Shown in pieces: positions 4,531 through 63,563 of a stretch of 64,000 nt of DNA. Numbering within the stretch: position 1 is the first letter of the stretch; each line of letters starts with the position of its first letter. Made by a program: the position numbers and the translations under genes. The DNA is from Escherichia phage AV117. The notes under the pieces were generated by a model, which saw only the letters and a list, made by a program, of their open reading frames with translations, did not search any database and was not told where the DNA came from. The stretch is taken from the sequence record OR352947.1, one strand, 5' to 3'.

Positions 4531-5151
4531 TTAAAGTTGAAGATACCACCCGTTGTAGTTGCTCTTGCGGACGATTTTCTTTAGGTCTTCATGGTCTCCC
4601 ACGAACTTTATAGAATAAGAGAAGACGTCAGGTGAGGTTTCTTTGACATCTAATATAATAATGCAATCTGCGACTCTATGGTTCAAGAAGGGCCCTATAT
4701 TGATTCCATTACCACCCGGATAATCACCGCTGTATCCTGTGGTAACCGAAATCCATTTAGAATCTATCTGGTGTGTCTTGACTTCTACACGAATTCCACA
4801 ATACTTGGGGTGGGCCAACACGTCCCATGCATACGTGTACGGGTCTTCTACGTCTTCAATACCTTTATTAACATACCCGTCTAGCCAATTTGCTACTACA
4901 TACTCTGCAAAGACCGCAACCTTACAACGTCGAACTACATCTTCTTTGTTTTGGCCAGGATTTTGGCTCAGGGAATACCGAGCAGTGTCAGCAATCTTCA
5001 CCTTCATTTCACTAGTCAAAAACTCATTCGACAGGATAAATGTCGGAAGATTCTTCAGTCTCAACAGTCCCAAGTTCGTCTTTACCATAGATACCTCTGA
5101 TGTGTAGTTCGCCAAAATAAATGCGGTCACCTTCTTCAAGATATTCTGCAT
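4531..5151 (-). CDS. hypothetical protein, possible DenB-position nuclease
   Basis: 206 aa in the T4 denB map position; weak D...EVK pattern reminiscent of PD-(D/E)xK; true start probably internal. Confidence 0.35.
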   Translation of the reverse strand: MQNILKKVTAFILANYTSEVSMVKTNLGLLRLKNLPTFILSNEFLTSEMKVKIADTARYSLSQNPGQNKEDVVRRCKVAVFAEYVVANWLDGYVNKGIEDVEDPYTYAWDVLAHPKYCGIRVEVKTHQIDSKWISVTTGYSGDYPGGNGINIGPFLNHRVADCIIILDVKETSPDVFSYSIKFVGDHEDLKKIVRKSNYNGWYLQL

Positions 5152-5362
5152 CTACCGGTGGGATTTCAATAACAACTTCGTCGCATTCTAACCAGCCGTA
5201 GTGTGCATCACCAGGATGTTTTACCAATTTAGCGCAATAAACTGATTTACACTTATGATGACCACGAAGATTAGCAATTTTGGATTCTGATACGTCAAAT
5301 GGATGAATCATAATTACCCCTAAAGAAAAAGGGGACCGAAGTCCCCAATTATTATTCTGCAA
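5024..5362 (-). CDS. hypothetical protein (true start probably internal Met near 5311, about 95 aa)
   Basis: the track ORF runs upstream through the rIIB terminator hairpin; internal MIHPFD start has an AGGGG RBS. Confidence 0.4.
   Translation of the reverse strand: MQNNNWGLRSPFSLGVIMIHPFDVSESKIANLRGHHKCKSVYCAKLVKHPGDAHYGWLECDEVVIEIPPVDAEYLEEGDRIYFGELHIRGIYGKDELGTVETEESSDIYPVE
5331..5346 (-). terminator. intrinsic terminator (UUCG tetraloop) immediately after rIIB
   Basis: ggggac-cgaa-gtcccc; minus RNA GGGGACUUCGGUCCCC followed by UUUUUCUUU. Confidence 0.65.
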
Positions 5363-6299
5363 ATAATTCAGTAACGTCTGAAATTACTTCATAACGACAA
5401 GTACGCATCTTAGCATCACCGTAGTCAACTGGGATAGATACAACATCACGTGGATGAACTTTAACCTTAACAACTTTATCTGAGCTAGAACCAAAGTAAC
5501 GAATATATGATTTAGCACAAACATGTAGACCACGGGAGCAGGTTTGAGTATCATCATCGTTAACACGAGTACGAGGCATTGAAACAACTTTACCAGGCGA
5601 GTTATCAAATGTGCCGCTATAGCAATCTAAATAGTCCTTACGAACTACTTTCCACGCATAGAAATGCCCATCTTCAGTGATTTCAATATCGTTTGCAACC
5701 AAGAAGTCGAATAAACGTTGTACAGCTTTTTCGCTTGGGTTTTCTAACAGGTTTTCAAGGAATGGCAGATAGAATTTAAAGTCTTCGCCTTTTTCCATGG
5801 AATCAATAATACGGTTAACCAGTCCTGAACGAATTTCTATACCTTGATAAAATAAACTACCACCTTCAATAGTAACATTACCGTCAACAAACTTACTAAT
5901 AGCTTTCTTGATGTTAATAAGTTCGACAGCTTTACTAAGGTTTCCTGCGACCAAATTAGCTTTAATTTCTTCAAAATTTGCATGACTTGATGGGGTCGCA
6001 TTGTATGCTACGCGTCCTTCAATAATTGAAATAAATTTAGATGACGCGTTCCATACGATTTCTGGACGATGACCGCCGATAATAGGTTCATCATTTTCTG
6101 GAACTTCTTCGATTACATAAGAGGCATCGTTTGCTTCAGGGACAACGCCTTCTGCTTTAAAATTCTTAACAATCTTACGAAGAGTATCTGTTGAAATGTC
6201 GAAGTAATCGGCAATTTCTTTACGAGTCCATTTGCCCGATTCAACCAGGCCATAAGCTTCTAACTGTTCTTCTTGGGACAAGCATTTAATATTGTACAT
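5352..6299 (-). CDS. rIIB: rIIB membrane-associated lysis-inhibition protein
   Basis: 315 aa, matching my recollection of T4 rIIB (312 aa); directly downstream of rIIA. Confidence 0.9.
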   Translation of the reverse strand: MYNIKCLSQEEQLEAYGLVESGKWTRKEIADYFDISTDTLRKIVKNFKAEGVVPEANDASYVIEEVPENDEPIIGGHRPEIVWNASSKFISIIEGRVAYNATPSSHANFEEIKANLVAGNLSKAVELINIKKAISKFVDGNVTIEGGSLFYQGIEIRSGLVNRIIDSMEKGEDFKFYLPFLENLLENPSEKAVQRLFDFLVANDIEITEDGHFYAWKVVRKDYLDCYSGTFDNSPGKVVSMPRTRVNDDDTQTCSRGLHVCAKSYIRYFGSSSDKVVKVKVHPRDVVSIPVDYGDAKMRTCRYEVISDVTELFAE

Positions 6300-6308
6300 A
6301 ATGTTTCC

Positions 6309-8522
6309 TTATTTGGCCGCTTCCACGGCCTTCATGAATTTAACGATTTGAGCGACCTGTTCTTTGGAAAGAGTACCACGTCGTCCCATGTATTCCGACA
6401 CAATATGATAATTGGTTTCGAATTCAATAACCATTTTATCATCATTATCGTAAGCATTATCTTTAAGCTTATCGAAAATTTTAGCACACAGTTCTAACTT
6501 CTTATTCAGATCTCTGTTAGTAGCACCTGAGAATCGATTCCATCCCCATCGATTATTTACTGTTGAAAGTTTTGCAAAATCTTTACTGATTTCTTTGTTC
6601 TTAGAGCTAAAATACTTACTAAGGAAGTTAAGCTCTTCATTACGAGTAATATGATTCAAATAAGGCTGTGCTCTACGACTTGGTGATACATACTCATCAT
6701 AATCTACTTTATCGATTAGCATAATATAGTCATTAATTGATTTTTCGAACAAGCATTCTACTTCACCAAGTTTACGAACTTTCTTAGCAATCTGTGGACG
6801 GACTACAGTGAACTCTTTAATACCTGACAAATCAGCAATACGGGTCAAGAAATTGGAGTCATAGTTCAACCAACCTTTATCTGCGTCAAGACATTCAGCA
6901 TTAGAACGATTACGAACTATAGCATAACCTTGGATTTCATCAGCTTCACTCGCCGGAATAAAGAGATCTTCTGATACCCAAACATCGTTTTCATTCTTAA
7001 AGAACCGATGAGCACTTGGGGATTTAGGACGAGGCCCATTAGAACGAGTCTTGACTTCAATCCATGGCTTAACGATTTGTAAAAGCTCTGAAGTCTTGTA
7101 CATGTTAATGTTGTCGCCATCAAAGATAACTTTAAGGCGTTCCAGAAGTTTCATTGCATCTTCGTCTGTAGGGTCAACGAATAGTACGCTTTTACCAAAA
7201 CCGCGTGGAACTTTACCTGTTAATTTAACCTCGTCTTTAGACATTTCAATTGAATTAAGAGCTCGCATTAATGGAACACGTCCCTTAACGTCGTCAATAA
7301 CAATTTCAACATTTTTAATGTTAATGCCAATCAGACTGTTAATTGAAATAGTTGACGATGAGCTACCACTTTCACGAATACGACGAAGACGAGGGTCTTC
7401 AATGATATCGTATACGACGCCTAGATTACACCATTCAGGTCCCATTTTAAAACGTTTGTACAACTCAGAATAAGTTAGTTGTTCTTTAGAATATTTCAGT
7501 GATTCAATATTAGAACCAGCTTTTTCCATGTATTTACGAGCTGTATAGCCAAGAGAATCGATTTCACGGAATACATGACGTGGATATTCACAATCAATCC
7601 ATTTCTTAGAATCTTCAGCAAATAATTTTGCATCGATTTCTGCAACACGTTTATGGATATTTGCTACTGTACGTTTATCAAATGACAATGCTTCACGAGA
7701 CGGGGCTACATCTAGTTCACCCATAGGGAATTTAATATAAGCTGTAGTGCATCGCGTCATCATCCATGTTTGTTCTTTAATAACACTTCCAATTGGATAT
7801 ACAATACCACCATAAACAGCCATGATATTACCACGTTCACCCCATGGAGCTTCCTTGGCCAAATATACATCATCGAATTCCGGGAAGTATTTGATATCTT
7901 TAACACCACGAACTTCTGCAATATCGCCGAGAGGACGCATAACATAAGCAATTTCGGATGCGAACTTTTCAAAATCTTCTGGGTTAACAGGCACAACTAC
8001 TTCAACGCCGGTCCGGTCATCAGGGCCCATCTTATCTACGAAGGTTGGCTTAATTTGTGGGCCTGTGTCATCTTGGTAGATTACGTAACCACGAACTTCA
8101 CCATTGTGATAAGACGTAAGGTTAAACGTATCAGTATATGCTAATGGAGCTTTAGAACCGAGTCCGAATCCACCGATGAAATCGTTACTCGATGTTTTAG
8201 TTGAAGCAAAATATGAGTTATAGATTCCTGGCTCTTCATCATTACCTCGAATGGTGAAATCACTCATACCAGGACCAAAGTCTCGAACTACAAAACGTGG
8301 GTCTAAACGACCTGGAGCCTGAACAATAAACTTATCAGTGCAACCATTAAGAATTTGTCCATCGATACAGTTTGTGATTAATTCACGTACACAAGCCAAT
8401 TCTTTGTTTGTATAAAGGTCATTAGACAAAATCTTATAAACTTTACTATTGCCTTGAATAGTAAATGCTGTGCTCTTACCGCCTGAACCAATAATTGTTT
8501 CTTTAGCCGTTTCAATAATCAT
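6309..8522 (-). CDS. rIIA: rIIA protein
   Basis: 737 aa; N-terminus MIIETAKETIIGSGGKS...LYTNK...RELITN.ID and long blocks (FIGGFGLGSK, GPQIKPTFV, APSREALS) match my recollection of T4 rIIA. Confidence 0.95.
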   Translation of the reverse strand: MIIETAKETIIGSGGKSTAFTIQGNSKVYKILSNDLYTNKELACVRELITNCIDGQILNGCTDKFIVQAPGRLDPRFVVRDFGPGMSDFTIRGNDEEPGIYNSYFASTKTSSNDFIGGFGLGSKAPLAYTDTFNLTSYHNGEVRGYVIYQDDTGPQIKPTFVDKMGPDDRTGVEVVVPVNPEDFEKFASEIAYVMRPLGDIAEVRGVKDIKYFPEFDDVYLAKEAPWGERGNIMAVYGGIVYPIGSVIKEQTWMMTRCTTAYIKFPMGELDVAPSREALSFDKRTVANIHKRVAEIDAKLFAEDSKKWIDCEYPRHVFREIDSLGYTARKYMEKAGSNIESLKYSKEQLTYSELYKRFKMGPEWCNLGVVYDIIEDPRLRRIRESGSSSSTISINSLIGINIKNVEIVIDDVKGRVPLMRALNSIEMSKDEVKLTGKVPRGFGKSVLFVDPTDEDAMKLLERLKVIFDGDNINMYKTSELLQIVKPWIEVKTRSNGPRPKSPSAHRFFKNENDVWVSEDLFIPASEADEIQGYAIVRNRSNAECLDADKGWLNYDSNFLTRIADLSGIKEFTVVRPQIAKKVRKLGEVECLFEKSINDYIMLIDKVDYDEYVSPSRRAQPYLNHITRNEELNFLSKYFSSKNKEISKDFAKLSTVNNRWGWNRFSGATNRDLNKKLELCAKIFDKLKDNAYDNDDKMVIEFETNYHIVSEYMGRRGTLSKEQVAQIVKFMKAVEAAK

Positions 8523-8534
8523 ATTTTTCTCTCA

Positions 8535-8735
8535 TCACAAGTTACGTTTAAAAATTTCTGCTACTTCAAGAAGTTCTTCTTTAGTAGCTGTATCGGTTTG
8601 TATTTTATATCGAATTTCCTTAAAGCGTTCTTTAAAGGCTTCGGCTGATTCGATATCAAAAAATCTTTGGATAAGCCGGAATTCCCGGAGCACTGCTTTA
8701 TCAAAAAGTTCCAAGTCCACGTTATATGTTCTCAT
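8535..8735 (-). CDS. hypothetical protein (rIIA.1 position)
   Basis: 66 aa ORF directly downstream of rIIA. Confidence 0.45.
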   Translation of the reverse strand: MRTYNVDLELFDKAVLREFRLIQRFFDIESAEAFKERFKEIRYKIQTDTATKEELLEVAEIFKRNL

Positions 8736-8827
8736 AATATTCTCTTCAGTAGATTCCTAGGGCACTATTACTAAAGACCATATAATCTATCATCTTATGT
8801 GTAATAGTGCCTCAGGCTATTCAGGAT

Positions 8828-9928
8828 TTACGCTGCGAAGATTTTATCCCACATCGCAACAACTGCATCTCGATTATACTTCTTCCATACTGCTTCAGCA
8901 CGTTTAACTCGAGCTTCGTATGTGTCAGTGAATTCTAATACAGCTTTTGTGTAAAGCGCAACTACTTCTTTCTTAGGAGTAGAGGAATCAATTTCTACAC
9001 GCACAGTATCTGGGTCGTATTCGAATGTCGCATGAGGATAATCCTTAAAAACTAACTGGATTACAGGGACACCTTTAGAGATAGCTTCAATAGAACTATT
9101 CTCTACTGTACCCGTGTCAGGACACGTATTAATAAGTGCTTTAGCTGTTTTAAGACGTTCCATGATTTCACTGTGTGGAGCATCAATAATAACAGGATAT
9201 TTAGCTGGTGGTGCCCATTTGCTTGGACAGTATCCTGCGCCATTTTCGCCTAGTGCTTTAATCGCTTCAAGAGCAACATCAGTACGACGCATTTTAGTGT
9301 CATAACGTTGTGCACTAATAATCAGATCAGTCGCCGGAAGAACTTCAGGTTTCTCATTCAAACAAATAACCGGATAATCTTCGGCTTCAAACAACGGATT
9401 TGCTCGCCAATAATCATAATCAATTTTGTCAGTCAGACCTGAAGTCATATAACAATATTTGCGTTCAAATTCACGGAAGGCTTTAGTAGGAGCATAACTC
9501 TTACCACCATTCTTATGAATTTGAATAGTCTGGTCCCAAATTTGAACAATGCCACGAGATACCGGTTCAAATGGTGTTGCCATAAAATTCTTATGAACTT
9601 TAGAGAGACCTGCGTCTTTAATTGCCTGAACGGTTAGTTTAGTCGGTTCCATAGTAACAACAAAATCGTATTCATGGATGCCGGCTAGTTCAACAATCTT
9701 ACGAGCCATAGTATAACTCATACCTAGACTGAATTTAGTCAGATGACCAACAGGATGGTGTGTAACTTTCCAGTCACCAAACGTGTCATTGTCAAAGCCG
9801 ATATAATCAATATCAGCACCGATGGACACAAGATATTTCAACACATTTAAATGTACTGCTTCAAGACCACCTTGTACACGGTCAGGATTAAATGGGACTG
9901 CACGAGATGGGATAAACATAACTTTCAT
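8828..9928 (-). CDS. putative GT-B fold glycosyltransferase, candidate hmC-DNA glycosyl(arabinosyl)transferase
   Basis: 366 aa; C-terminal TGTVENSSIEAISKGVPVI resembles the E-x7-E donor-binding motif of GT-B enzymes; lies between rIIA.1 and gene 39 where T4 has gene 60; no T4 agt/bgt homolog seen in the window. Confidence 0.5.
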   Translation of the reverse strand: MKVMFIPSRAVPFNPDRVQGGLEAVHLNVLKYLVSIGADIDYIGFDNDTFGDWKVTHHPVGHLTKFSLGMSYTMARKIVELAGIHEYDFVVTMEPTKLTVQAIKDAGLSKVHKNFMATPFEPVSRGIVQIWDQTIQIHKNGGKSYAPTKAFREFERKYCYMTSGLTDKIDYDYWRANPLFEAEDYPVICLNEKPEVLPATDLIISAQRYDTKMRRTDVALEAIKALGENGAGYCPSKWAPPAKYPVIIDAPHSEIMERLKTAKALINTCPDTGTVENSSIEAISKGVPVIQLVFKDYPHATFEYDPDTVRVEIDSSTPKKEVVALYTKAVLEFTDTYEARVKRAEAVWKKYNRDAVVAMWDKIFAA

Positions 9929-9953
9929 AATTAAGCCTTATTAAAATTAAAAT

Positions 9954-9971
9954 GAAGCTCCCGAAGGAGCT
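9954..9971 (-). terminator. intrinsic terminator (UUCG tetraloop) after gene 39
   Basis: aagctcc-cgaa-ggagctt abutting the gene 39 stop; minus RNA followed by CAUUUUAAUUUUAAU. Confidence 0.6.
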
Positions 9972-11788
9972 TAGGACATCCATTCTTTACGAAGTTCTGA
10001 ATCATCACCCAACAACATTTCAAAGAGTTCTTTCCAATTTTCAGGAAGTTTAACTACGTCGTACACAGGGTTTTGAATCATTTCACGATATTCTGACTTT
10101 TCAAGTGAGCCCAATCCCTTGATGTATCGAATACTATGCTTAGGCAGTGTATCTTTAGCTTCTTCATACTCAGCTACAGTATAAAACCATTTTTGAGTTT
10201 TGCCAATTTGTGCAATAATTACAGGCGTTTTAACAAAGCGAATACGTCCTTGTTCAAACAATTCAGGCCAATTACTAAAGAAAGCAAGCAAAGCCGGATA
10301 AATACTTCCAAGACCGTCATGATCGGCATCGGTCATAATTGCAATATTACGATAGTTCGTATTCTCTGCCTTTTCACCAAGAATAAGACCTGTGATAGCA
10401 CAGATATCAAAGAGCTCTTTGTTCTTCATCATATCAGCATATGACATACCCCAGCTATTCATCACCTTACCACGTAATGGGAATCCACCGTGTAGTTCAC
10501 GGTCACGAACATCAATGAGATAACCAATTGCCGAATCACCTTCTGTTAAAAACAATGTCGTATCCGCATCTTTACCGCATTGGTTAGCTTTAATATGCTT
10601 ATGAACCTTAGCTTTAGTTGCCTTTTTAGCTGCTTTAGTTTCTGCAGCCTTTTCTGCTGCCAATTTACGAGCTAATGCTGCTTCAACAATAGGCATAATC
10701 AAGGCTTCGTTTTTAAGAAGTGCCTGAGCAATTTTCTTAGCATCTAATTGGATATGATTACGAATATCACCATACGTTGACGTTAAACGTTCTTTAGTCT
10801 GAGAATCAAAACGCATGTTGCTCATGTCTCTAATAAACATCAACATTGTGAGACATTCTTTAACACGAGCTTTAGTGACTTCAATACCCTTATATTTCTT
10901 TTTAATACCCGGCAAAAGATGTTCGCAGATATCATCCATTACACATTCAACATGATGACCACCATTTTTAGTATGGATGTTATTCACATAAGTTAAATGA
11001 CGGAAGCCGTCTGGTGATGTTGTGAATGCTATAGAGACTTTATCATTTTCTTGAATGATGTTATCTTCACCAAATTGTTTAGCAAATCGTTTAAAATTAC
11101 CATCAACCTTTTTACCATTAAATGTGAACTTGATATCAGGATAAACGACTGCCAATGTTTGAAGCCGGTCTAAAGTAATATCTAAATAAATTTGAGATAA
11201 ATTATGTTCTTCAAATGAAGAGAAATCAGGAGTGAAGATTACTTTAGTGCCTTTACCTTTAGATTTCTTAGAAGACCATGATTTGTTTTCCATCCCGTTT
11301 GAACAGTTAACAGTGATTTCATTTTCGCCATCTGACGTTATGCCTGTAAACAACGTAGAGAAGATATTAGTTAAACTACTCCCGACGCCGTTCATACCAC
11401 CGGTCTTACGTTCAGAGTCATCGCCAAAGTTACCACCAGCCTTTGGAATAGTCCAGGCTGCTACAGGCCCAGGAATTTGTTCACCTGTTTGGTCGGTAAC
11501 TAAACCTTGAGGAATACCACGTCCGTTATCTTCCACCGAAACTTGATTATTTTTAATTTGCACATCAATTTTATTTGCAAACTTAAATGATGTACGAATA
11601 GCTTCATCAACCGAGTTGTCAATAATCTCATCGATTAATTTAACCAGACCAGGAACATATTCAACTTGTTGATATTTACCAAACAAAAAACGTTCGTGGG
11701 CTTCTTTGGCCGAAGAACCAATATACATGCCACTTCGTTTCTTAATATGTTCTACATCTGACAATACCTTAATTTCATTTTTAATCAT
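9971..11788 (-). CDS. 39: DNA topoisomerase II large subunit (GyrB-like), fused gp39+gp60 form
   Basis: 605 aa; GHKL ATPase motifs (DNGRGIP, GGxxGxG-like) and TOPRIM; length equals the fused 39+60 subunit of non-T4 T-evens. Confidence 0.93.
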   Translation of the reverse strand: MIKNEIKVLSDVEHIKKRSGMYIGSSAKEAHERFLFGKYQQVEYVPGLVKLIDEIIDNSVDEAIRTSFKFANKIDVQIKNNQVSVEDNGRGIPQGLVTDQTGEQIPGPVAAWTIPKAGGNFGDDSERKTGGMNGVGSSLTNIFSTLFTGITSDGENEITVNCSNGMENKSWSSKKSKGKGTKVIFTPDFSSFEEHNLSQIYLDITLDRLQTLAVVYPDIKFTFNGKKVDGNFKRFAKQFGEDNIIQENDKVSIAFTTSPDGFRHLTYVNNIHTKNGGHHVECVMDDICEHLLPGIKKKYKGIEVTKARVKECLTMLMFIRDMSNMRFDSQTKERLTSTYGDIRNHIQLDAKKIAQALLKNEALIMPIVEAALARKLAAEKAAETKAAKKATKAKVHKHIKANQCGKDADTTLFLTEGDSAIGYLIDVRDRELHGGFPLRGKVMNSWGMSYADMMKNKELFDICAITGLILGEKAENTNYRNIAIMTDADHDGLGSIYPALLAFFSNWPELFEQGRIRFVKTPVIIAQIGKTQKWFYTVAEYEEAKDTLPKHSIRYIKGLGSLEKSEYREMIQNPVYDVVKLPENWKELFEMLLGDDSELRKEWMS

Positions 11789-14169: not shown

Positions 14170-14688
14170 TTAAGCTTTAAGAGGAGACACATAGCGAGTG
14201 ATTTCAGATTCTTTAACAACTCGGAAGTCACCTAAGAATACGATATTGTATAGCTTTTCACCATCTTCAACCCATTGGTCGCTAATGAAGCCACACATGA
14301 TATCAGTTGTGCTTGGATAACCGTATTCGTCGATGTAATCAAATTCTTTATCGGTTATAAATTCAACGCCTTTGCAAAGAGCCCATTTGAACTGTACATT
14401 AGGTTCAGTAGAAGCAAAATGAGCGCTCACACGAGTTTCCAGGAATTTAGGACTTACGTAAGCGTACTGAGTATCCTGACGTCCAAAACTAGGAATGATT
14501 CGAACTTTAACTTCTTTAATGCGTCCCATGCCATTTGTGCGAAGTCCGACAACTTCAACCAGACGACCTGCGGCTTTAGACCGGGATGCAGTTGATACAC
14601 GCTTAATTTCACCAATAGTAATCATAATTTCTCTCTCTTTGTTTAAATTGAATTCACTATACTCCATCCATCCTTGGATGTACAACAT
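14170..14688 (-). CDS. hypothetical protein, paralog family member B (start probably internal MITIGEIK)
   Basis: ASRSKAAGRLVEV and DQWVEDGEKLYNIVFLGDF motifs; the track start overlaps the promoter. Confidence 0.55.
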   Translation of the reverse strand: MLYIQGWMEYSEFNLNKEREIMITIGEIKRVSTASRSKAAGRLVEVVGLRTNGMGRIKEVKVRIIPSFGRQDTQYAYVSPKFLETRVSAHFASTEPNVQFKWALCKGVEFITDKEFDYIDEYGYPSTTDIMCGFISDQWVEDGEKLYNIVFLGDFRVVKESEITRYVSPLKA

Positions 14689-15224
14689 TAATTAAGGATA
14701 TTAACTACTGCACTACGTGGAACCACACTAAAATCACCGGCATGAACAACGTTCAGAAGTTCAACACCGTCTTCAATCCATTGGTCAGTTACCCATCCAT
14801 TTACTGGACCATCGAATGGGCGTCGAATTGAAACATATTTACACAATAAATCAGTAGGCTCAATAGGCTTAATCAGAGTACCGTACATACAAACGATATC
14901 CATATCAAAGTGGAGACCATCTTTAACAGGTGCTTCTTCAATCAAGAGTTCAAAGTCGGTGCTTGGAAGGGCGGTAGTAGAAATTGTACCGTATAAATTT
15001 TTAATTTCTAAGAATAACCAAGGGCCTTCAACTTGTTTAATGAAGTTAACAATAGTGAAACTATTACCTTGAGTGGCGCCTAAAATTTCACAAAACTTTT
15101 CGTAAGCTCGCACTGAAGCACCGTACCAATTGATTTGTTTTTCGTCTTTCAGGATGTAAGTAGCCGTAGTATTGATATTCATAATGTTTTCCCGTTTGGT
15201 TAAGATAGAAAGATTATACTCCAA
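14688..15224 (-). CDS. hypothetical protein, paralog family member C (start probably internal)
   Basis: C-terminal TDQWIEDGVELLNVVHAGDFSVV; more diverged N-terminus. Confidence 0.5.
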   Translation of the reverse strand: MEYNLSILTKRENIMNINTTATYILKDEKQINWYGASVRAYEKFCEILGATQGNSFTIVNFIKQVEGPWLFLEIKNLYGTISTTALPSTDFELLIEEAPVKDGLHFDMDIVCMYGTLIKPIEPTDLLCKYVSIRRPFDGPVNGWVTDQWIEDGVELLNVVHAGDFSVVPRSAVVNILN

Positions 15225-21562: not shown

Positions 21563-21570
21563 TATTTATA
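21563..21570 (-). promoter_or_regulatory. T4 late promoter TATAAATA upstream of soc
   Basis: tatttata on the plus strand (TATAAATA on the coding strand) about 32 nt before the soc ATG. Confidence 0.65.
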
Positions 21571-53851: not shown

Positions 53852-53859
53852 TATTTATA
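53852..53859 (-). promoter_or_regulatory. T4 late promoter TATAAATA upstream of gene 49
   Basis: tatttata on the plus strand about 30 nt before the gene 49 ATG. Confidence 0.6.
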
Positions 53860-55787: not shown

Positions 55788-56092
55788 TATAATGTTCTCT
55801 CAAATTTGTGGAAGCATTTACGGCATTTCAATTTCAAGTTATCAGTGGTCCAGTTAACCAGTTGGACTTGGATAGTTCCACATTCCGGGCACGGATGTTT
55901 TGCTGCCGTTTTGGCAGCATTTTCACGTCGTTCAACCATTTTCATTATTTCGTTCCATGCCGGAGGAACGAACTCTCCTTCACCGTGGATTTTATCTCGC
56001 TGAACAAATTCAATCTTTGAACTATCGTCAATAAACTTAACCAAGCCGTGATTAGTGCTCATATCAATATCCTCTAAAAGACGTAGTTTCAT
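55787..56092 (-). CDS. hypothetical zinc-ribbon protein (101 aa)
   Basis: CPECG...CRKC. Confidence 0.5.
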   Translation of the reverse strand: MKLRLLEDIDMSTNHGLVKFIDDSSKIEFVQRDKIHGEGEFVPPAWNEIMKMVERRENAAKTAAKHPCPECGTIQVQLVNWTTDNLKLKCRKCFHKFERTL

Positions 56093-57036
56093 TATAAAAC
56101 CTCAATGGCATTTCGTAAACCATCAGCTTTTGCATTCAGAGCTTTTAATGATTTAGTTTGTTCTGCAATCTGGGCTTCGACTTCTTTCAGGCGAGATTTG
56201 AGATATTCGCGTTCTTCTCTTAAGTTATCAACTTTTTCTGCTTTAGGCTCTTTAATAGGCTTATACTCGTTAGGGTTCTTCAACTTAATTTGAATGCGAG
56301 AACTGTATAACATTGAACCATTATCTTCGGTTTCATCATACATTTCTACCACGTCCATGATTCTTAACATCATGCGAAGTTTATAAGACAGCGAACGAAT
56401 GGTTTTGTTGTGCTTATTAATTTCTTCGGCTTTCATGGTACCGAGATTACGTGAGTAGTAATAAGGAACCTGGATATCAATTGATAATGATGCGGTACCA
56501 TTACCTGTTGGTTTGAACACTGCAGTAACCCAATCTTTAGCATGAACTGTATTTGTACGATCATCGCCACCTGTGAATAATTTACGTGAATGTTTAAAAA
56601 GCATATTCACTTGGTTATTGAATTCACAAGCAAATTTATCAGCAAATTTAGTTTCAGGAATGGTAGTTAACCAATCAGCCAAATGAGTCTTTTTAACATC
56701 ATTAACAATAGTGAATTCAACCAAATCGGTTTTAGATGTCACAGATTTAATAAAGCTCGGCTTCATAAAGTTTTTAATGTTATCGCGAGCTACAGTAGAA
56801 GATAATAAACGAGAACGTTTGAACCATTGAAGCAGTGTCCCTAATGAATGAGAATACGCATTCTGAGTATCTTTACAGATATGATTTTCTTGGCCTGTGT
56901 ATGTACCAAAATCGCGAAGAATACCACTTACTACATCTCGGTGTGGAACATCAAATCCTAGTGCACCAGTAGCGCGCTGAGCATGAACGTTAGCGATAAG
57001 ACCTGCAAAATAATCAATGTAATGTGAACGTGTCAT
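56092..57036 (-). CDS. hypothetical protein with C-terminal coiled coil (314 aa)
   Basis: C-terminal heptad-like LREEREYLKSRLKEVEAQIAEQTKSLKALNAKADGLRNAIEVL. Confidence 0.5.
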   Translation of the reverse strand: MTRSHYIDYFAGLIANVHAQRATGALGFDVPHRDVVSGILRDFGTYTGQENHICKDTQNAYSHSLGTLLQWFKRSRLLSSTVARDNIKNFMKPSFIKSVTSKTDLVEFTIVNDVKKTHLADWLTTIPETKFADKFACEFNNQVNMLFKHSRKLFTGGDDRTNTVHAKDWVTAVFKPTGNGTASLSIDIQVPYYYSRNLGTMKAEEINKHNKTIRSLSYKLRMMLRIMDVVEMYDETEDNGSMLYSSRIQIKLKNPNEYKPIKEPKAEKVDNLREEREYLKSRLKEVEAQIAEQTKSLKALNAKADGLRNAIEVL

Positions 57037-57054
57037 AATATTTTCCTCTCGTTA

Positions 57055-57094
57055 AGATAGAAAGATTATACTCCAACCATCCTTGGTTGTAAAC
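57055..57094 (-). promoter_or_regulatory. early promoter, near-identical duplicate of the 15205-15242 element
   Basis: gttaagatagaaagattatactccaaccatccttggttgtaaactg. Confidence 0.5.
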
Positions 57095-57098
57095 TGAT

Positions 57099-58031
57099 TT
57101 ATGATTTTAATGCATTCATTGCGTTAAAAAGTTTAGAGTACTGCAACTGGAGCTTGGTAACTACTTGTTGAGCATCACGAAGCTTAGCTTGTGCTTTGTC
57201 AAGTTCAACAGACAGTTGGTCCGCAGTGGCTTTGATTTGATTATAATAGTAATCTTCGGCAGGAAGAAGACCGTTAGAGATTTCCAGTTTAGTCGACGGT
57301 GTGCCATTAAACATAACAGGTTGTGCTGAAGCCGCATTAATCTTACCGATAGTCGGGGCGACAATAATTGACGCTTCGAACGTTGCATTTTCCTTTTTAA
57401 GATTTTTATAATATTCAGAGTCTTTGTGCCACCATGGCGCAGGAACCTTTTTACCAATAGATACACGAGCCTGGATAGCGATATGGCCCTTATTCTTGAT
57501 AACGTCGATAATATTAAGCTCACGAGAATAAATTGCTTTAATCTGGTAAATATTATCACCTAACACTTCCAACGCTTGGTGGAATACACGAGCAACGTTA
57601 TCATTCTTAGGTTTATACGTAAGAGTGAACTCGTTCTCACTGATAACCATGATTTCTAACTTATCGTAAGTATATTTCAAATGTTTCATGTTAATTGCTT
57701 GAGGACGAATACGAGAAGCAATGGCCATCAGATTGTTAAGGTTATTTCTGAACTGTTTAGCAAAATATTGTCCTTCACCGCCAATACAAAAATTACGAAG
57801 TTTCTGTTTGGCTAATAAACGACTGAACTCGCCATTTTTAATGAACTCTTTAACTGGTGTGTTAGTAACGCATTCAAATTGAGTAAACTTACGAGAAGTA
57901 ATCCCATAATATGAACAGATTTCCTCAATCTCTTCAGGAGTCTTTACAGGCATACGGATAGGATTAGGTCCTGGGGTATATGCGTTCGAGGTAAATTCTT
58001 TGATAAGTTCTCTACGTGTAATAAAAGCCAT
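57099..58031 (-). CDS. hypothetical protein with C-terminal coiled coil (310 aa)
   Basis: C-terminal ADQLSVELDKAQAKLRDAQQVVTKLQLQYSKLFNAMNALKS. Confidence 0.5.
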   Translation of the reverse strand: MAFITRRELIKEFTSNAYTPGPNPIRMPVKTPEEIEEICSYYGITSRKFTQFECVTNTPVKEFIKNGEFSRLLAKQKLRNFCIGGEGQYFAKQFRNNLNNLMAIASRIRPQAINMKHLKYTYDKLEIMVISENEFTLTYKPKNDNVARVFHQALEVLGDNIYQIKAIYSRELNIIDVIKNKGHIAIQARVSIGKKVPAPWWHKDSEYYKNLKKENATFEASIIVAPTIGKINAASAQPVMFNGTPSTKLEISNGLLPAEDYYYNQIKATADQLSVELDKAQAKLRDAQQVVTKLQLQYSKLFNAMNALKS

Positions 58032-58044
58032 TTTATATTCCTCA

Positions 58045-58086
58045 TGTTGAAAAATTTATTATACTCCAACCATCCCTGGTTGTACA
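58045..58086 (-). promoter_or_regulatory. early promoter, third member of the TATACTCCAACC repeat family
   Basis: TGTACA-N17-TATAAT then GAGGAA RBS. Confidence 0.5.
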
Positions 58087-59082
58087 TCATTCCTTAAGAA
58101 GTTTTACTACTTGAATAAGATTAGCTCGTTCCGTTTTATTTTTACCATTTAAGCCTGCTAATCGTGAGATTTCATCATCAGTCTGTTGAATAGTTACATT
58201 AAGTTCGTTAATCAAAGCTTCAAAGTATTTGATTTGCTCAGCATGTTTTGATTCAAATTTCTGAACCGGAATAACGTCTTGGTTCAGTTCATCAATAAGG
58301 TCTTTAAGAGCATCTTCTTGGTTGATATCATATTCAACTTCTTTTATTTCTTCAACGAGCTCGTCTTTATATCTAACGTCTTTTAGTCCTGGTGCTGGTC
58401 CTGAAATCTCTTCTTTAAGAGTACAAACATATCCAATACGGTATCCAATGCCGTCTCGCTTGATATCAACTTCGTCAATAAATCCACAATGTTTAAGACC
58501 AGAGCCGATTAGGTCAAAATATCCTTGACGTCGTCCTTCAAACGTTACACGAACTACTAAGACAGTTTTACCTGCAACCTTTTGAAGCTCACATTTATAA
58601 AAGTTTGTTGAACCTGAATACCGTGGATGAGTTTTAAAGTTCATCTGACGATCTAGGCCCATTTGTAAGCGTGCTGATACGGCCATAAAACGTGTTTGGT
58701 TCTCGTTAAGATGAGCAACAATCCATTTCAAAGGCATTTTACACTGTTCACGACCGAACAAATCAGTACGTCCTAGATTACGCAGAATGTTGTTAGAGTT
58801 AATCATCGACAGAACGTTAAGTTTATTCAGCGCGCTGAAGATTCCATCAGCCATTGATTTTCCGTAACCTTTACACGCTTTAATAAGCGCTCGCGGTAGA
58901 TTAGTATAAATTTCAGACGGCATATGAAAATCAAATTTACTAGTCAGTAATTGATGAACTTGGATAGCAATTTGCTCATAATTAAGTGCTCTGCGATCAT
59001 TATGGTCTTTAAACCACACTTTAATCTGTGAAGCACATAAACCGTTAATTTCATGTTTTACCGCATCAGATGTAATGCTCAT
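58087..59082 (-). CDS. hypothetical protein with C-terminal coiled coil (331 aa)
   Basis: C-terminal heptad-like region after residue 240. Confidence 0.5.
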   Translation of the reverse strand: MSITSDAVKHEINGLCASQIKVWFKDHNDRRALNYEQIAIQVHQLLTSKFDFHMPSEIYTNLPRALIKACKGYGKSMADGIFSALNKLNVLSMINSNNILRNLGRTDLFGREQCKMPLKWIVAHLNENQTRFMAVSARLQMGLDRQMNFKTHPRYSGSTNFYKCELQKVAGKTVLVVRVTFEGRRQGYFDLIGSGLKHCGFIDEVDIKRDGIGYRIGYVCTLKEEISGPAPGLKDVRYKDELVEEIKEVEYDINQEDALKDLIDELNQDVIPVQKFESKHAEQIKYFEALINELNVTIQQTDDEISRLAGLNGKNKTERANLIQVVKLLKE

Positions 59083-60156: not shown

Positions 60157-61158
60157 TTATTTCAGTAAAGTTACTTCAGAGATTTCCTCCCAACCATCTT
60201 TATCAGTTGAAATAAAATCTGCTACATAAAGAGCCGTACGTAATGATACATTGCGAAGACGAGATACGTTGGCCTTCATCCAGGACAATGCTTTATACGT
60301 TTCTGCATCTGTCAGACCACGTTTCTGCATCATGTCAGTAGATAATATTACATCTTCAACTCGAACCATAATCTCTTCATTAGAGTGTACTCCGAGGTCG
60401 AGATACACTGAACGAGATACTAAAGCTTGAAGGTGTGGGGCAAGTTTCGAACCGCGTTCTAACTCTTTATCGATATCAACGTTTGTAATGAAAACGATAG
60501 TACCTTCAAACTCAAATTCTTTATCAATACCCTTATCATCGAGATAAGATGACGCAGTGCTCCAGCAAACTTTGCGTTTATCTCCAGTATCTAATGCTGC
60601 TTTAAGAAGGTTCAAGATGTCCATATCCGAGAATACGTCAACGTCGTCGATTAAGAGAACGCTGTCTGCATCACGGTTGAGCCAAAGTTGTTCGTAAAGG
60701 CCAATACCAGAGATTTTACCATTAATGCTTTTGTATTTGATGAAACCATTATCATTAGCATTATTAAGTGCTTTATCCAGAGAATACGTCTTACCAATAC
60801 CAGCTGCACCTGAAATAATGAGTGAACGAATTTTGCCATCGATAATGCCATTCGTCATCATGTTCATTACTTTAAAGCGTTTGTTGATACGAGTTTTCAT
60901 ATCTTCAGTGCTTTCAACAACTGCAACTGGTGATGTCTCAACTCCTTCCATTACGATGTCTGATTTGAAGACCCATACTCCACGTTCAGAACCATCAATC
61001 ATAACGAAAATTTTACCATCACCTAAGTGGGAACATTCAGGATTAAGCTTTGCCGGGAACCATGTCTTTGTGGCAACATAAGAACCAGAGATTTCGTTAT
61101 TACGATAGATACCTTTTTTGATTTGAACGTTGAACATTTTATTCTCCAATTTACTCAT
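60157..61158 (-). CDS. P-loop NTPase of unknown function (333 aa)
   Basis: Walker A SGAAGIGKT and Walker B VLLIDDVD; N-terminal domain of about 110 aa with no recognised motif. Confidence 0.55.
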   Translation of the reverse strand: MSKLENKMFNVQIKKGIYRNNEISGSYVATKTWFPAKLNPECSHLGDGKIFVMIDGSERGVWVFKSDIVMEGVETSPVAVVESTEDMKTRINKRFKVMNMMTNGIIDGKIRSLIISGAAGIGKTYSLDKALNNANDNGFIKYKSINGKISGIGLYEQLWLNRDADSVLLIDDVDVFSDMDILNLLKAALDTGDKRKVCWSTASSYLDDKGIDKEFEFEGTIVFITNVDIDKELERGSKLAPHLQALVSRSVYLDLGVHSNEEIMVRVEDVILSTDMMQKRGLTDAETYKALSWMKANVSRLRNVSLRTALYVADFISTDKDGWEEISEVTLLK

Positions 61159-61164
61159 TTCGTT

Positions 61165-61205
61165 TCGATAGGTCTATAATAACATATCCTAAAAGCATGT
61201 ACACT
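61165..61205 (-). promoter_or_regulatory. early promoter downstream of the 61236-61253 terminator
   Basis: GTGTAC-N17/18-TATTAT-AGACCTATC. Confidence 0.5.
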
Positions 61206-61235
61206 ACTTTTTTAAAAATATTTTAACCCCCTAAA

Positions 61236-61253
61236 GGGACCCGAAGGTCCCCA
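61236..61253 (-). terminator. UUCG-tetraloop hairpin after the small secreted-protein gene
   Basis: gggacc-cgaa-ggtcccc. Confidence 0.5.
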
Positions 61254-61256
61254 CAT

Positions 61257-61520
61257 TTACTTATCGCACTTAGCAACATAATTAGGCATATCACAGAATA
61301 CGGAGCGAGTAACTACTCGGCCCTTTGACCATGCTTCAGTTGCTTGTCCGGCTGTGCTATTAATATAGCTTGATCTAATGTTCTCAATACCCTGAGAATG
61401 TGATGCATTTACAGAACCATTAGAAGTCCCAGAAGACTGGTTACTACCAGCTGCACCCGTGGTAGCACCAACAGAGAATGCCATCATTACTGCGAATAAA
61501 CCAATTACTAATTTTTTCAT
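61257..61520 (-). CDS. small secreted protein (87 aa) with signal peptide
   Basis: MKKLVIGLFAVMMAFSVGA signal sequence; Ser/Gly/Asn-rich mature region; C-terminal Cys pair; late promoter upstream. Confidence 0.5.
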   Translation of the reverse strand: MKKLVIGLFAVMMAFSVGATTGAAGSNQSSGTSNGSVNASHSQGIENIRSSYINSTAGQATEAWSKGRVVTRSVFCDMPNYVAKCDK

Positions 61521-61551
61521 ATTTACCTCAAGTTAATGGTTATTTATCTAC

Positions 61552-62541
61552 TTATTTATAGTAAGAATTATGATTTTCGAGATAGACTTGTTCAAGGAAG
61601 TCATCCCAGAAACTCATATCTACTTTTTGTTGCATACCGTTCTTGGCAGCTTGTTCTGACGCATGTTCAACTTGGTCAACGATATCTTCTAGGAATTCTT
61701 GAACAGTTTTAAACGTATGTTTACCAAGCTTAACATCGAGAATAAATGGAGCATCCTGAAGTGGGTAAACCAGGTCGCCTGTTTTGTAAATTTCCAATAA
61801 TTGAAGTCCACCACGACATGCATGACTCAATGCTTTCCAGTCAATACCTTCGTTAGCTTCTGCCTTACGAGCACGTTCACCATAGTTCTCTTCCAGTTTA
61901 ACCAGGATGGCATTGAACTCTTTATTGGTTAACGTGTCTTGGAATTTACGGTCTAACAGATTATAGAATGTTTGCTTACCTGTTTTCTCGTTTTCAGTTT
62001 CAACCCACGAAGCAAATTCACCTACAGGCAGAACATTCTTCATATGTGATAAACGAATTACCGCACCATTATCAAAGTATTGTCCCCATTCATTAGAACG
62101 TTTAAGGGCTTGACGAAGAACAGCCAGTCGAGAACCCTTGACACCGTATTTAGAAGCTTGCTTACGGACATACCCTAAATAAGATTTCATGTTAGTGGTA
62201 TAGAAACGAGACCTGTTATCTTGAATATACTTCCATACATCAGGCAAATCAGATTTAACTACTAAACTTGGTGGAGTGTGAAGCATATCTAATGCGACGG
62301 TTTCACCATCCGCCGCTAATTTAAAGAAATATTTGAGACTATACAACTCATGGTCTACGTCGTCTTTTGTGTTCTTAGAAGATGTGTTATTCGTGTTCTT
62401 GCTCATGTGTTCTTTAACGTTACCGGTCAAGATATCACGAGCGTGAGGGACATAAATTTCTTTAAAATCGACGTCAGATTCAGGAGTAGACGTTCCGTAA
62501 AGGTGGCTACCAAAGTAGCCTTTCATAATTGTTTTCATCAT
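61552..62541 (-). CDS. Pol-beta-superfamily nucleotidyltransferase-fold protein (329 aa)
   Basis: N-terminal GYFGSHLYGTSTPESDVDF (GS...[DE]x[DE] minimal NTase signature) with a downstream acidic residue (VALDML); helical C-terminal domain. Confidence 0.5.
   Translation of the reverse strand: MMKTIMKGYFGSHLYGTSTPESDVDFKEIYVPHARDILTGNVKEHMSKNTNNTSSKNTKDDVDHELYSLKYFFKLAADGETVALDMLHTPPSLVVKSDLPDVWKYIQDNRSRFYTTNMKSYLGYVRKQASKYGVKGSRLAVLRQALKRSNEWGQYFDNGAVIRLSHMKNVLPVGEFASWVETENEKTGKQTFYNLLDRKFQDTLTNKEFNAILVKLEENYGERARKAEANEGIDWKALSHACRGGLQLLEIYKTGDLVYPLQDAPFILDVKLGKHTFKTVQEFLEDIVDQVEHASEQAAKNGMQQKVDMSFWDDFLEQVYLENHNSYYK
61553..61560 (-). promoter_or_regulatory. T4 late promoter TATAAATA upstream of the secreted-protein gene
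   Basis: tatttata on the plus strand about 33 nt before the ATG at 61520. Confidence 0.5.
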
Positions 62542-63011
62542 TTAGCCTTATATTCAAGAGTAGGACAGATTTTTTCTTTACGAGCTTTAAGGTATTCACC
62601 TATTAATGATTTCTTACGTTCAATAGGTTCAAGTCCGTTTTTAATTCGTTCTTGGTTTTGCGCAATGAGCTCAATTTCTTTATAATATTTTCTGTCGTTA
62701 TATTTGTCTAACAACCAAGACGGACCAATTACCAACCCGGCAGAAATAAAAGCCATGACTGCTACCATTAAAATGCCTACACCAATTGAGGCCGGAACTA
62801 ATGTCCATAGACTGCTAAAAACAAAGAATCTAGTTAAAATTTCTTGGCCAATGATTGTTACTGCTGCTAAAATCGCAAATCCAATAATTGAAACAGCCAA
62901 TACCGGGATTAACGTTTTCCAAAAATAAGCACACAACGTTTTCGGACGATTCCATGTACTATTGAACGCGGCATAAATTTTAAAGTGCCAAGAGTTTTCA
63001 TTGATAATCAT
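62538..63011 (-). CDS. hypothetical membrane protein (157 aa)
   Basis: 2-3 predicted TM helices (LIPVLAVSIIGFAILAAVTIIG; VGILMVAVMAFISAGLVIG). Confidence 0.5.
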   Translation of the reverse strand: MIINENSWHFKIYAAFNSTWNRPKTLCAYFWKTLIPVLAVSIIGFAILAAVTIIGQEILTRFFVFSSLWTLVPASIGVGILMVAVMAFISAGLVIGPSWLLDKYNDRKYYKEIELIAQNQERIKNGLEPIERKKSLIGEYLKARKEKICPTLEYKAK

Positions 63012-63020
63012 AATAATTCC

Positions 63021-63563
63021 TTATTTCAAAGTCGGGATAATAGAATCAAGATAAGCTTTAAGAGCAACTGCTTCATCTTTGTCTAATGTAACGATATGTT
63101 GACGAAGGTCATCAATTTGACGAATAACTACGACATCACCATCTTCATAAGAAGGATTAACGCCTAGGACTGTTGTATAGTCAGGGCGGTCCTGATTTGT
63201 AATAAAAGCATTACGGCATTTAGCCCATTGAAGTTTGGCCTTTTTGGCTGTTTCAGATTCCATGAATTCTTTCACTTTAGCGACGAATGTTTTCCAATTA
63301 TTAATAGAAAAACATTCGTCTTCAGTTTCGATATTAACCCCACTATAAAGTCCATGATAAAAACGAACTTGAAGGTCTTCGTTAATGTTAATTACAGATG
63401 CATGACCCGGTGGATTGAGTTTCAAAATCTTGTCTAGTTCCATAGGAAGAATAGTAGCAGCATCATCTTCTTGTGTCAGAACATACACATAACCACGTTT
63501 TTCGATACATAAATCACCAAACAACTCGGTTGTTTCAATTACAGTTTTCATATTATTCACCAA
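63021..63563 (-). CDS. hypothetical protein (180 aa)
   Basis: ORF. Confidence 0.5.
   Translation of the reverse strand: MVNNMKTVIETTELFGDLCIEKRGYVYVLTQEDDAATILPMELDKILKLNPPGHASVININEDLQVRFYHGLYSGVNIETEDECFSINNWKTFVAKVKEFMESETAKKAKLQWAKCRNAFITNQDRPDYTTVLGVNPSYEDGDVVVIRQIDDLRQHIVTLDKDEAVALKAYLDSIIPTLK

Follow-up and report, generated by a model that had tools for sequence, protein, structure and literature searches.

Identity of the AV117 nucleotidyltransferase

A 64,000-nucleotide stretch of Escherichia phage AV117 (sequence record OR352947.1; hereafter the window) carries on its minus strand, at 61552-62541, a gene for a 329-residue protein that is almost certainly the Mosigvirus ortholog of T4 NrdC.11, a Pol-beta-superfamily nucleotidyltransferase (NTase) of the RlaP family (PF10127). 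By analogy with the characterised RlaPs, we lean, with somewhat better than even confidence, toward NrdC.11 being a template-independent enzyme that would add nucleotides to RNA 3'-OH ends, refilling trimmed tRNA with polynucleotide kinase (Pnk) and RNA ligase 1 (Rnl1). The nrdC.11 gene is a widely conserved accessory gene of the T4 family, already annotated as a nucleotidyltransferase gene and already assigned to RlaP in the literature. The phage-type NTase represents a subfamily of its own, the 'long' RlaPs, whose cellular members are linked to RNA repair.

The assignment was made from Pfam, PHROGs and identity to T4. The AV117 protein is 79% identical to T4 NrdC.11 over its full length, with a phmmer E of 4.8e-176 to the T4 open reading frame (ORF). 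The T4 protein (NP_049709, 'nucleotidyltransferase') is encoded on the same strand and in the same slot, between nrdC.10 and mobD.1. Residues 7-152 matched positions 23-148 of the 249-position Pfam RlaP profile, titled 'RNA repair pathway DNA polymerase beta family', at 49.1 bits (cutoff 23; E 7.7e-13), and in PHROGs the protein matched phrog_388, 'nucleotidyltransferase', at 2.6e-126. By tblastn the NTase was found in 1,542 phage records, and an exhaustive search of a library clustered at 50% identity gave 3,214 relatives at E ≤0.001, 742 of which reached 1e-30. When the NTase was compared with canonical short RlaPs by hhalign, the probability was 93.6% (E 2e-7) at about 14% identity. The family is thus a known one (RlaP/NrdC.11), its function being accessory rather than housekeeping.

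Gene order agrees with this identity. A 3.5-kb stretch is 97-98.5% identical to many genomes of Mosigvirus (T4-like, Straboviridae), for example vB_EcoM-ZQ3 and ST0. The order of the same stretch in T4 is nrdC.10 - nrdC.11 - mobD - mobD.1, and in AV117 a MobD.1 (y05I) ortholog at 63021-63563 on the minus strand (PF24449, 2.9e-40; PF24448, 2.1e-19; phmmer to T4 mobD.1, 1.9e-47) marks T4 synteny on the upstream side of the NTase. The annotation of ST0, a phage of the same species, likewise has nrdC.11 flanked by nrdC.10 and mobD.1, within the nrdC-tk early region. A first-pass annotation of the window had described four ORFs in 60157-63011, all of which are present, on the minus strand (333, 87, 329 and 157 codons), and had not recognised them as standard T4 genes. 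The NTase is T4 nrdC.11, the P-loop protein encoded by the 333-codon ORF is T4 nrdC.10, and the T4 gene order is kept. Most database entries for NrdC.11 start at a second ATG, at 62538, which gives a protein of 328 residues.

Active site and predicted structure

The first-pass annotation had reported a GS-x9-SDVD signature followed by an acidic residue, and had judged the protein probably catalytically competent. The signature is present at residues 11-25 (G11-S12-x9-S22-D23-V24-D25; codons at 62467-62511, minus strand), and the candidates for the downstream acidic residue are D63 (62353-62355, minus strand) and D85 (62287-62289, minus strand). Conservation was scored over 140 aligned relatives, which were representatives of clusters at 50% identity and 34-53% identical to the query; the T4 sequence was left out. 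G11 was kept in all 140, while S12, D23 and D25 were each kept in 139 and D85 in 136; position 63 was Asp in 135 and Glu in the other 5, and so acidic throughout. Catalytic residues were therefore not lost among the orthologs, at least 136 of the 140 retaining each of the others, and the active site is intact and strongly conserved. A second near-invariant set, of mostly basic and aromatic residues, lies in the C-terminal half: Y124, Q128, K131, Y132, R138, Y220, R223, D234-W235-K236, H240, R243 and K271.

In the hhalign alignment canonical RlaP has an invariant Asp opposite D63 and an invariant Glu opposite D85. Because D63 aligns with the canonical Asp and sits on a beta strand in the NTase model, we infer that D23, D25 and D63 make up the metal-binding triad. 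This triad would most probably bind a pair of divalent metal ions, and D85 lies close by.

An AlphaFold2 model built from the 140-sequence alignment had a mean predicted local distance difference test score (pLDDT) of 94.6 and a predicted template modeling score (pTM) of 0.85. In it the N-terminal domain is alpha/beta, whereas the C-terminal half consists mostly of helices, apart from a sheet of three strands at residues 177-201, and ends in a long helix at 309-328. The largely helical C-terminal domain expected from the first inspection is thus borne out, the small sheet being an addition. In the crystal structure of PfRlaP the last helix packs back on the NTase domain (bioRxiv 10.64898/2025.12.29.696909). 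Taken together, the family profile, the active site and the model support the nucleotidyltransferase fold that had been proposed for the 329-residue protein, and place it in the Pol-beta superfamily. Searches of the PDB with direct sequences and with family profiles gave no match for the NTase, for canonical RlaP or for the 157-residue membrane protein encoded next to nrdC.11. By Foldseek the NTase model had no close solved structure in the PDB; the best matches were kanamycin nucleotidyltransferase (KNTase), 3c18 ('NTase-like') and Hailong HalB, at E 3e-3 to 1e-2 and template modeling (TM) scores of about 0.3. Among predicted viral structures the model matched other phage NTases, with TM scores up to 0.75.

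HalB is a protein-primed enzyme whose oligo-dA product serves a channel partner; because HalB is the closest solved structural relative, the NTase might make an oligonucleotide. Two readings follow this line. One takes the NTase as an enzyme that would make or mimic a nucleotide or oligonucleotide signal, in the manner of Hailong HalB or the CD-NTases, possibly acting with the translationally coupled membrane protein; the fold similarity behind it is weak and generic, and we give it the least credence of all the readings considered here. The other, very improbable and only slightly less so, takes the membrane protein and NTase as a phage-borne Hailong-like or anti-Hailong module, in which the product would gate the membrane protein or serve as a decoy that keeps a HalA-type channel of the host closed. 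HalB (PDB 9dbh/9dbj), KNTase and 3c18 are 8-16% identical to the NTase, with TM scores of about 0.3 and Foldseek E of at least 3e-3. KNTase modifies aminoglycosides, and the gene contexts described below point to neither a KNTase nor a HalB activity. The PADLOC defense-system profiles matched none of the five proteins searched, at E up to 0.1. A CD-NTase identity was rejected on the lack of a PADLOC or Pfam match and of any CD-NTase among the fold matches, and there was no sign of a poly(A) polymerase. The earlier suggestion of a CD-NTase or other defense-like candidate thus found no PADLOC match, and the similarities to KNTase, 3c18 and HalB are weak and generic.

Gene context of the cellular relatives

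The context of the NTase relatives was scanned with the family alignment as query, in one genome per bacterial or archaeal species. Neighbors within 6 kb were collected, their ORFs were clustered, and recurrent clusters were annotated with Pfam. The scan yielded 80 bacterial and archaeal loci with full-length NrdC.11 relatives, 33-52% identical to the AV117 protein. RNA-repair genes recur beside them: Pnkp (kinase, phosphatase and ligase) in 8 loci, Hen1 in 7, RtcB in 10 and Ro60/TROVE in 4. Individual inspection showed at least 12 loci in which the next gene downstream, in the same orientation, encodes a second NTase; the automatic count of a second RlaP ORF was 20. This second NTase is the canonical short RlaP, of about 252-277 residues, which matches PF10127 over its full length at 1.9e-62. 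One or more of Pnkp, Hen1, RtcB, Ro60 and a second RlaP were present in 32 of the 80 loci.

The bacterial tandems consist of a long RlaP of about 310-350 residues followed by the short one, the typical order being Hen1 - Pnkp - long RlaP - short RlaP. The tandem loci are L016, L031, L037, L047, L054, L059, L062, L065, L074, L081, L083 and L086 of the scan, in most of which the NTase match lies at about 6001-6990. Long-short tandem pairs are not mentioned in the preprint on RlaP (bioRxiv 10.64898/2025.12.29.696909). Phages carry only the long form.

These contexts and the sequences set out how NrdC.11 stands to the canonical RlaPs. It resembles the RlaPs of Pseudomonas fluorescens and P. aeruginosa in Pfam family, in the GS...DxD...D active site and, in the model, in the arrangement of an N-terminal NTase domain and a mainly helical C-terminal domain, and NrdC.11-type relatives, like canonical RlaPs, also occur in RtcB and Pnkp/Hen1 operons. 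It differs in being about 60-75 residues longer than the canonical RlaPs of the present comparison, with the additional sheet at residues 177-201, and in falling in cluster 5 of a sequence similarity network, whereas the characterised Pseudomonas RlaPs fall in cluster 1a. In bacteria, moreover, the NrdC.11 type often adjoins a canonical RlaP instead of replacing it.

Proposed function of NrdC.11

In T4, Pnk and Rnl1 carry out the classic viral repair of tRNA cut by a host suicide nuclease. Nucleases of the RloC type defeat plain re-ligation by also removing the wobble nucleotide. Some T4 tRNAs need the host cca gene for maturation, which speaks against a CCA-adding activity of T4's own.

RlaP was defined by Burroughs and Aravind in 2016, as quoted in later papers. 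Two Pseudomonas RlaPs were characterised in a December 2025 preprint (bioRxiv 10.64898/2025.12.29.696909). They add one or two nucleoside monophosphates (NMPs), or dNMPs, to RNA 3'-OH ends, use any nucleoside triphosphate (NTP) with little base preference, and prefer Mn2+. They are inactive on DNA and on proteins, and E. coli proteins were not labelled. They favor the 5' fragment left when a tRNA is cleaved in its anticodon loop, and with a tRNA lacking one anticodon-loop nucleotide, pre-treatment with RlaP partly restores aminoacylation after ligation; full-length tRNAs and rRNAs are also labelled in vitro. The same preprint names T4 NrdC.11 in cluster 5 of its PF10127 network and calls its function unknown (bioRxiv 10.64898/2025.12.29.696909). 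In a comparative study of jumbo phages, RlaP NTases were predicted to restore the nucleotides removed by RloC-like nucleases before ligation, and their distribution among jumbo phages was found to mirror that of RNA ligases.

By extension from the Pseudomonas enzymes, NrdC.11 would add one or two NMPs, with no template, to RNA 3'-OH ends, preferably to those of 5' tRNA halves that result from cleavage in the anticodon loop. It would put back the nucleotides taken by host anticodon nucleases of the trimming, RloC type, acting during infection with the phage polynucleotide kinase/phosphatase and RNA ligase 1, and ligation after the refill would yield some functional tRNA. Among the targets suggested at first inspection (nucleotides, RNA ends, a host protein or a counter-defense role), RNA ends are the best supported, and the defense-like identity found no support.

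The possibility was also weighed that NrdC.11 serves in general RNA 3'-end tailing, or in the maturation or repair of the CCA end of tRNA, extending RNA ends so as to mature, protect or mark them. The in vitro labelling of full-length tRNAs and rRNAs with any NTP is in keeping with such a role, T4-type phages encode tRNAs, and in Rhodobacter phage RcXuper the NTase homolog (5001-5990 of the extracted locus) heads an array of more than 12 tRNA genes, at 337-412 and 6269-10509 of that locus. This position in a tRNA array fits a tRNA-directed function, and it counts toward the proposed refilling of cut tRNA as well. However, the ligases, Pnkp, Hen1 and RtcB beside the bacterial relatives are break-repair enzymes rather than enzymes of CCA addition, and RlaP adds only one or two nucleotides and does so without base specificity. 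We regard the tailing or CCA role as unlikely, though it has better prospects than any of the other alternatives.

A protein target was considered as well, in which the NTase, like MntA, would AMPylate and so neutralise a host RNase toxin with a HEPN domain. The matches that would support this lie far below threshold and the fold similarity is weak and generic; a Pfam search showed no gene for a HEPN partner in the vicinity; the Pseudomonas RlaPs did not label E. coli proteins; and the bacterial neighbors are RNA-repair enzymes, not toxins. We accordingly hold an MntA-type activity to be very improbable, and MntA/HEPN and aminoglycoside-NTase (KNTase) identities were rejected for want of a HEPN partner and of a close fold match.

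Several observations weigh against the refilling of trimmed tRNA by NrdC.11. The biochemistry comes from Pseudomonas RlaPs, which lie outside the NrdC.11 subfamily, and the authors of that work call the biological role of RlaP unproven (bioRxiv 10.64898/2025.12.29.696909). The Pfam and hhalign matches are confined to the N-terminal 130-150 residues or so of the NTase; nothing in canonical RlaP aligns with the C-terminal half (153-329, including the sheet at 177-201), and therefore the choice of substrate could differ. Non-specific addition would give the correct nucleotide only part of the time. In the scan of cellular genomes, 48 of the 80 loci had no RNA-repair neighbor within 6 kb. In phage, nrdC.11 is not beside an RNA ligase gene, and the neighborhood that defines RlaP is seen only in the bacterial relatives. 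Neither RNA ligase 1 nor polynucleotide kinase was found in the 64-kb window. Other observations, together with the RNA-repair neighborhoods of the cellular relatives, speak for the proposed role. ST0 encodes both Rnl1 and Pnk, about 85 kb away from the NTase. Matches to Rnl1 and to the NTase run in parallel by phage host genus (Escherichia, 636 vs 627; Klebsiella, 287 vs 286; Shigella, 83 vs 83; Acinetobacter, 69 vs 69), but this co-occurrence is weak evidence, mostly reflecting shared ancestry in Straboviridae. A deletion in T4 can take out everything from nrdC.11 to mobD.3, so this accessory gene is dispensable in the laboratory.

The long, NrdC.11-type RlaP may have a specific job different from that of canonical RlaP, for example the restoring of a particular nucleotide. 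A separate job would account for the retention of the two forms side by side in the Hen1-Pnkp and RtcB operons of bacteria.

NrdC.10 and the question of a three-gene module

The NrdC.10 ortholog, a P-loop, AAA+-like ATPase of 333 residues with an N-terminal domain of about 85 residues, is encoded at 60157-61158 on the minus strand. It is 77% identical to T4 NrdC.10 and matches phrog_1250 at 1.1e-161. The Walker motifs reported at first inspection were confirmed: Walker A is GAAGIGKT (residues 117-124) and Walker B is LLIDDVD (168-174), both invariant or nearly so in seven diverse homologs, in which N226, R249 (of an SRS/SRC motif), R302 and R307 are also invariant. To judge from its motifs, the protein is probably, if tentatively, a clamp-loader/initiator-type AAA+ ATPase that carries an additional domain at its N terminus. 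It is like the RFC and ORC1/Cdc6 proteins in its Walker A (GxxGxGKT) and Walker B (hhhhDDxD) patterns, in a sensor-1 Asn after an 'FITN' strand, in an SR(S/C) that aligns with the RFC SRC motif, and in conserved C-terminal arginines. It is unlike them in its unique N-terminal domain of about 85 residues, and the profile matches are all sub-threshold: AAA_16 and AAA_22 at 20-22 bits (cutoffs 27-33), and, in the PDB, RFC4, ORC1 and Cdc6 at E 0.02-0.24. Against one phage clamp loader of the gp44 type the NrdC.10 profile gave an hhalign probability of 3%, and a single-sequence AlphaFold2 model had a pLDDT of 35.

NrdC.10-type ATPases also occur in the jumbo phages Asteriusvirus CRJP21 (4977-5750 of the extracted locus) and Pseudomonas phage Deifobo (4656-5816 of the extracted locus). 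The CRJP21 copy is without the N-terminal domain of about 85 residues, and therefore the ATPase core and that domain are separable.

The first-pass annotation had implied that the NTase, NrdC.10 and the membrane protein form a functional trio. The three genes do share a strand and a span of 2.9 kb, and many Tevenvirinae, as well as Acinetobacter phage AbTZA1, keep the block. Yet a late-promoter motif, a hairpin and a promoter-like site lie between nrdC.10 and the NTase gene, and the genes part company elsewhere. Homologs of nrdC.10 in ValKK3 (Schizotequatrovirus), Vibrio phage D510, CRJP21 and Deifobo have no NTase within 5 kb; neighbors of nrdC.10 homologs are topoisomerase, ribonucleotide reductase, clamp-loader, dUTPase, helicase or uncharacterised genes. 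Conversely, the NTase homologs of Aeromonas phage 50AhydR13PP, Shewanella phage Thanatos-1 and RcXuper have no nrdC.10 neighbor. Counts by host genus also differ between nrdC.10 and the NTase (Klebsiella, 149 vs 286; Vibrio, 121 vs 59), and T4 keeps the NTase without the membrane protein and without the 87-residue ORF. Given these separate phage distributions and the intervening regulatory signals, the three-gene module was rejected, its chance of being correct being very small. NrdC.10, the membrane protein and the 87-residue protein are products of separate genes, adjacent by inherited T4-type order, and are not the subunits of one system.

The membrane protein, the 87-codon ORF and regulatory signals

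The gene for the 157-residue membrane protein (phrog_944) occupies 62538-63011 on the minus strand, and its stop codon overlaps the NTase start by 4 nt, as ATGA. A hydrophobic block at residues 25-102 is enough for two or three transmembrane segments, in agreement with the multi-spanning protein, overlapping the NTase, that had been described. That description had put the gene downstream of the NTase; in the direction of transcription it is upstream. The gene lies directly upstream of nrdC.11 in many T4-like phages and also in Acinetobacter phage AbTZA1, and homologs of the protein are found in ICP1 and one jumbo phage. It is absent from T4, and no copy was found beside the bacterial NTase relatives. 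T4 differs in having the mobD homing endonuclease gene where AV117 carries the membrane-protein gene: mobD (14430-15209 of the extracted T4 locus) occupies the membrane-gene slot of AV117 and many T4-like phages. This suggests that the membrane gene was replaced or lost in T4 when the mobD endonuclease inserted.

Between nrdC.11 and nrdC.10 lies an ORF of 87 codons (phrog_2243; 61257-61520, minus strand), absent from T4 and widespread in other T4-like phages; T4, without this late ORF, has a gap of 115 bp between nrdC.10 and nrdC.11. The encoded protein has a signal-peptide-like N terminus, a middle rich in Ser, Gly, Asn and Thr, and two Cys near the C terminus. Its match to the NCBIfam BLB8/JUQZ-1 family is weak and sub-threshold (E 0.0025). 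The motif TATAAATA, the T4 late-promoter consensus, lies at 61553-61560 on the minus strand, overlapping the last NTase codons and 33 nt upstream of the ATG of the 87-codon ORF. The product is probably expressed late, and with its predicted signal peptide it agrees, at the level of sequence, with the earlier description of a late-expressed secreted peptide.

In the 64-kb window TATAAATA occurs three times against 7.1 expected, at 21563-21570, 53852-53859 and 61553-61560, all on the minus strand. In each case this is the coding strand. Because the motif is scarce and confined to the coding strand, selection against stray late promoters in this region of early and middle genes is suggested.

Just 3' of the 87-codon ORF, at 61235-61252 on the minus strand, is a hairpin with a 7-bp GC-rich stem and a UUCG loop, which could be a terminator or a stabilising hairpin. 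The folding energy of its 58-nt context was not significant against shuffled sequences (z -0.73), and a search of the whole window with Rfam matched no RNA family. A promoter-like site for nrdC.10 lies 3' of the hairpin, at 61203-61176 on the minus strand.

Farther along, at 56092-59082 on the minus strand, three consecutive ORFs of about 310-330 codons have predicted coiled-coil-like tails; the middle one matches DUF7235. BLASTP among the five ORFs downstream of nrdC.10, these three included, showed no paralogy and no pairwise similarity.

Implications

The idea that phage RlaPs refill trimmed tRNA has already been published, and the AV117 window brings no new kind of element. What is added here is the assignment of the four genes, evidence against a partnership between the NTase and its flanking genes, and evidence for the long RlaP as a separate subfamily that is often paired with canonical RlaP in the RNA-repair operons of bacteria. 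Should NrdC.11 indeed restore trimmed nucleotides, phage tRNA repair would have in it a third enzyme that had been missing, and one that more than 1,500 sequenced phages carry.

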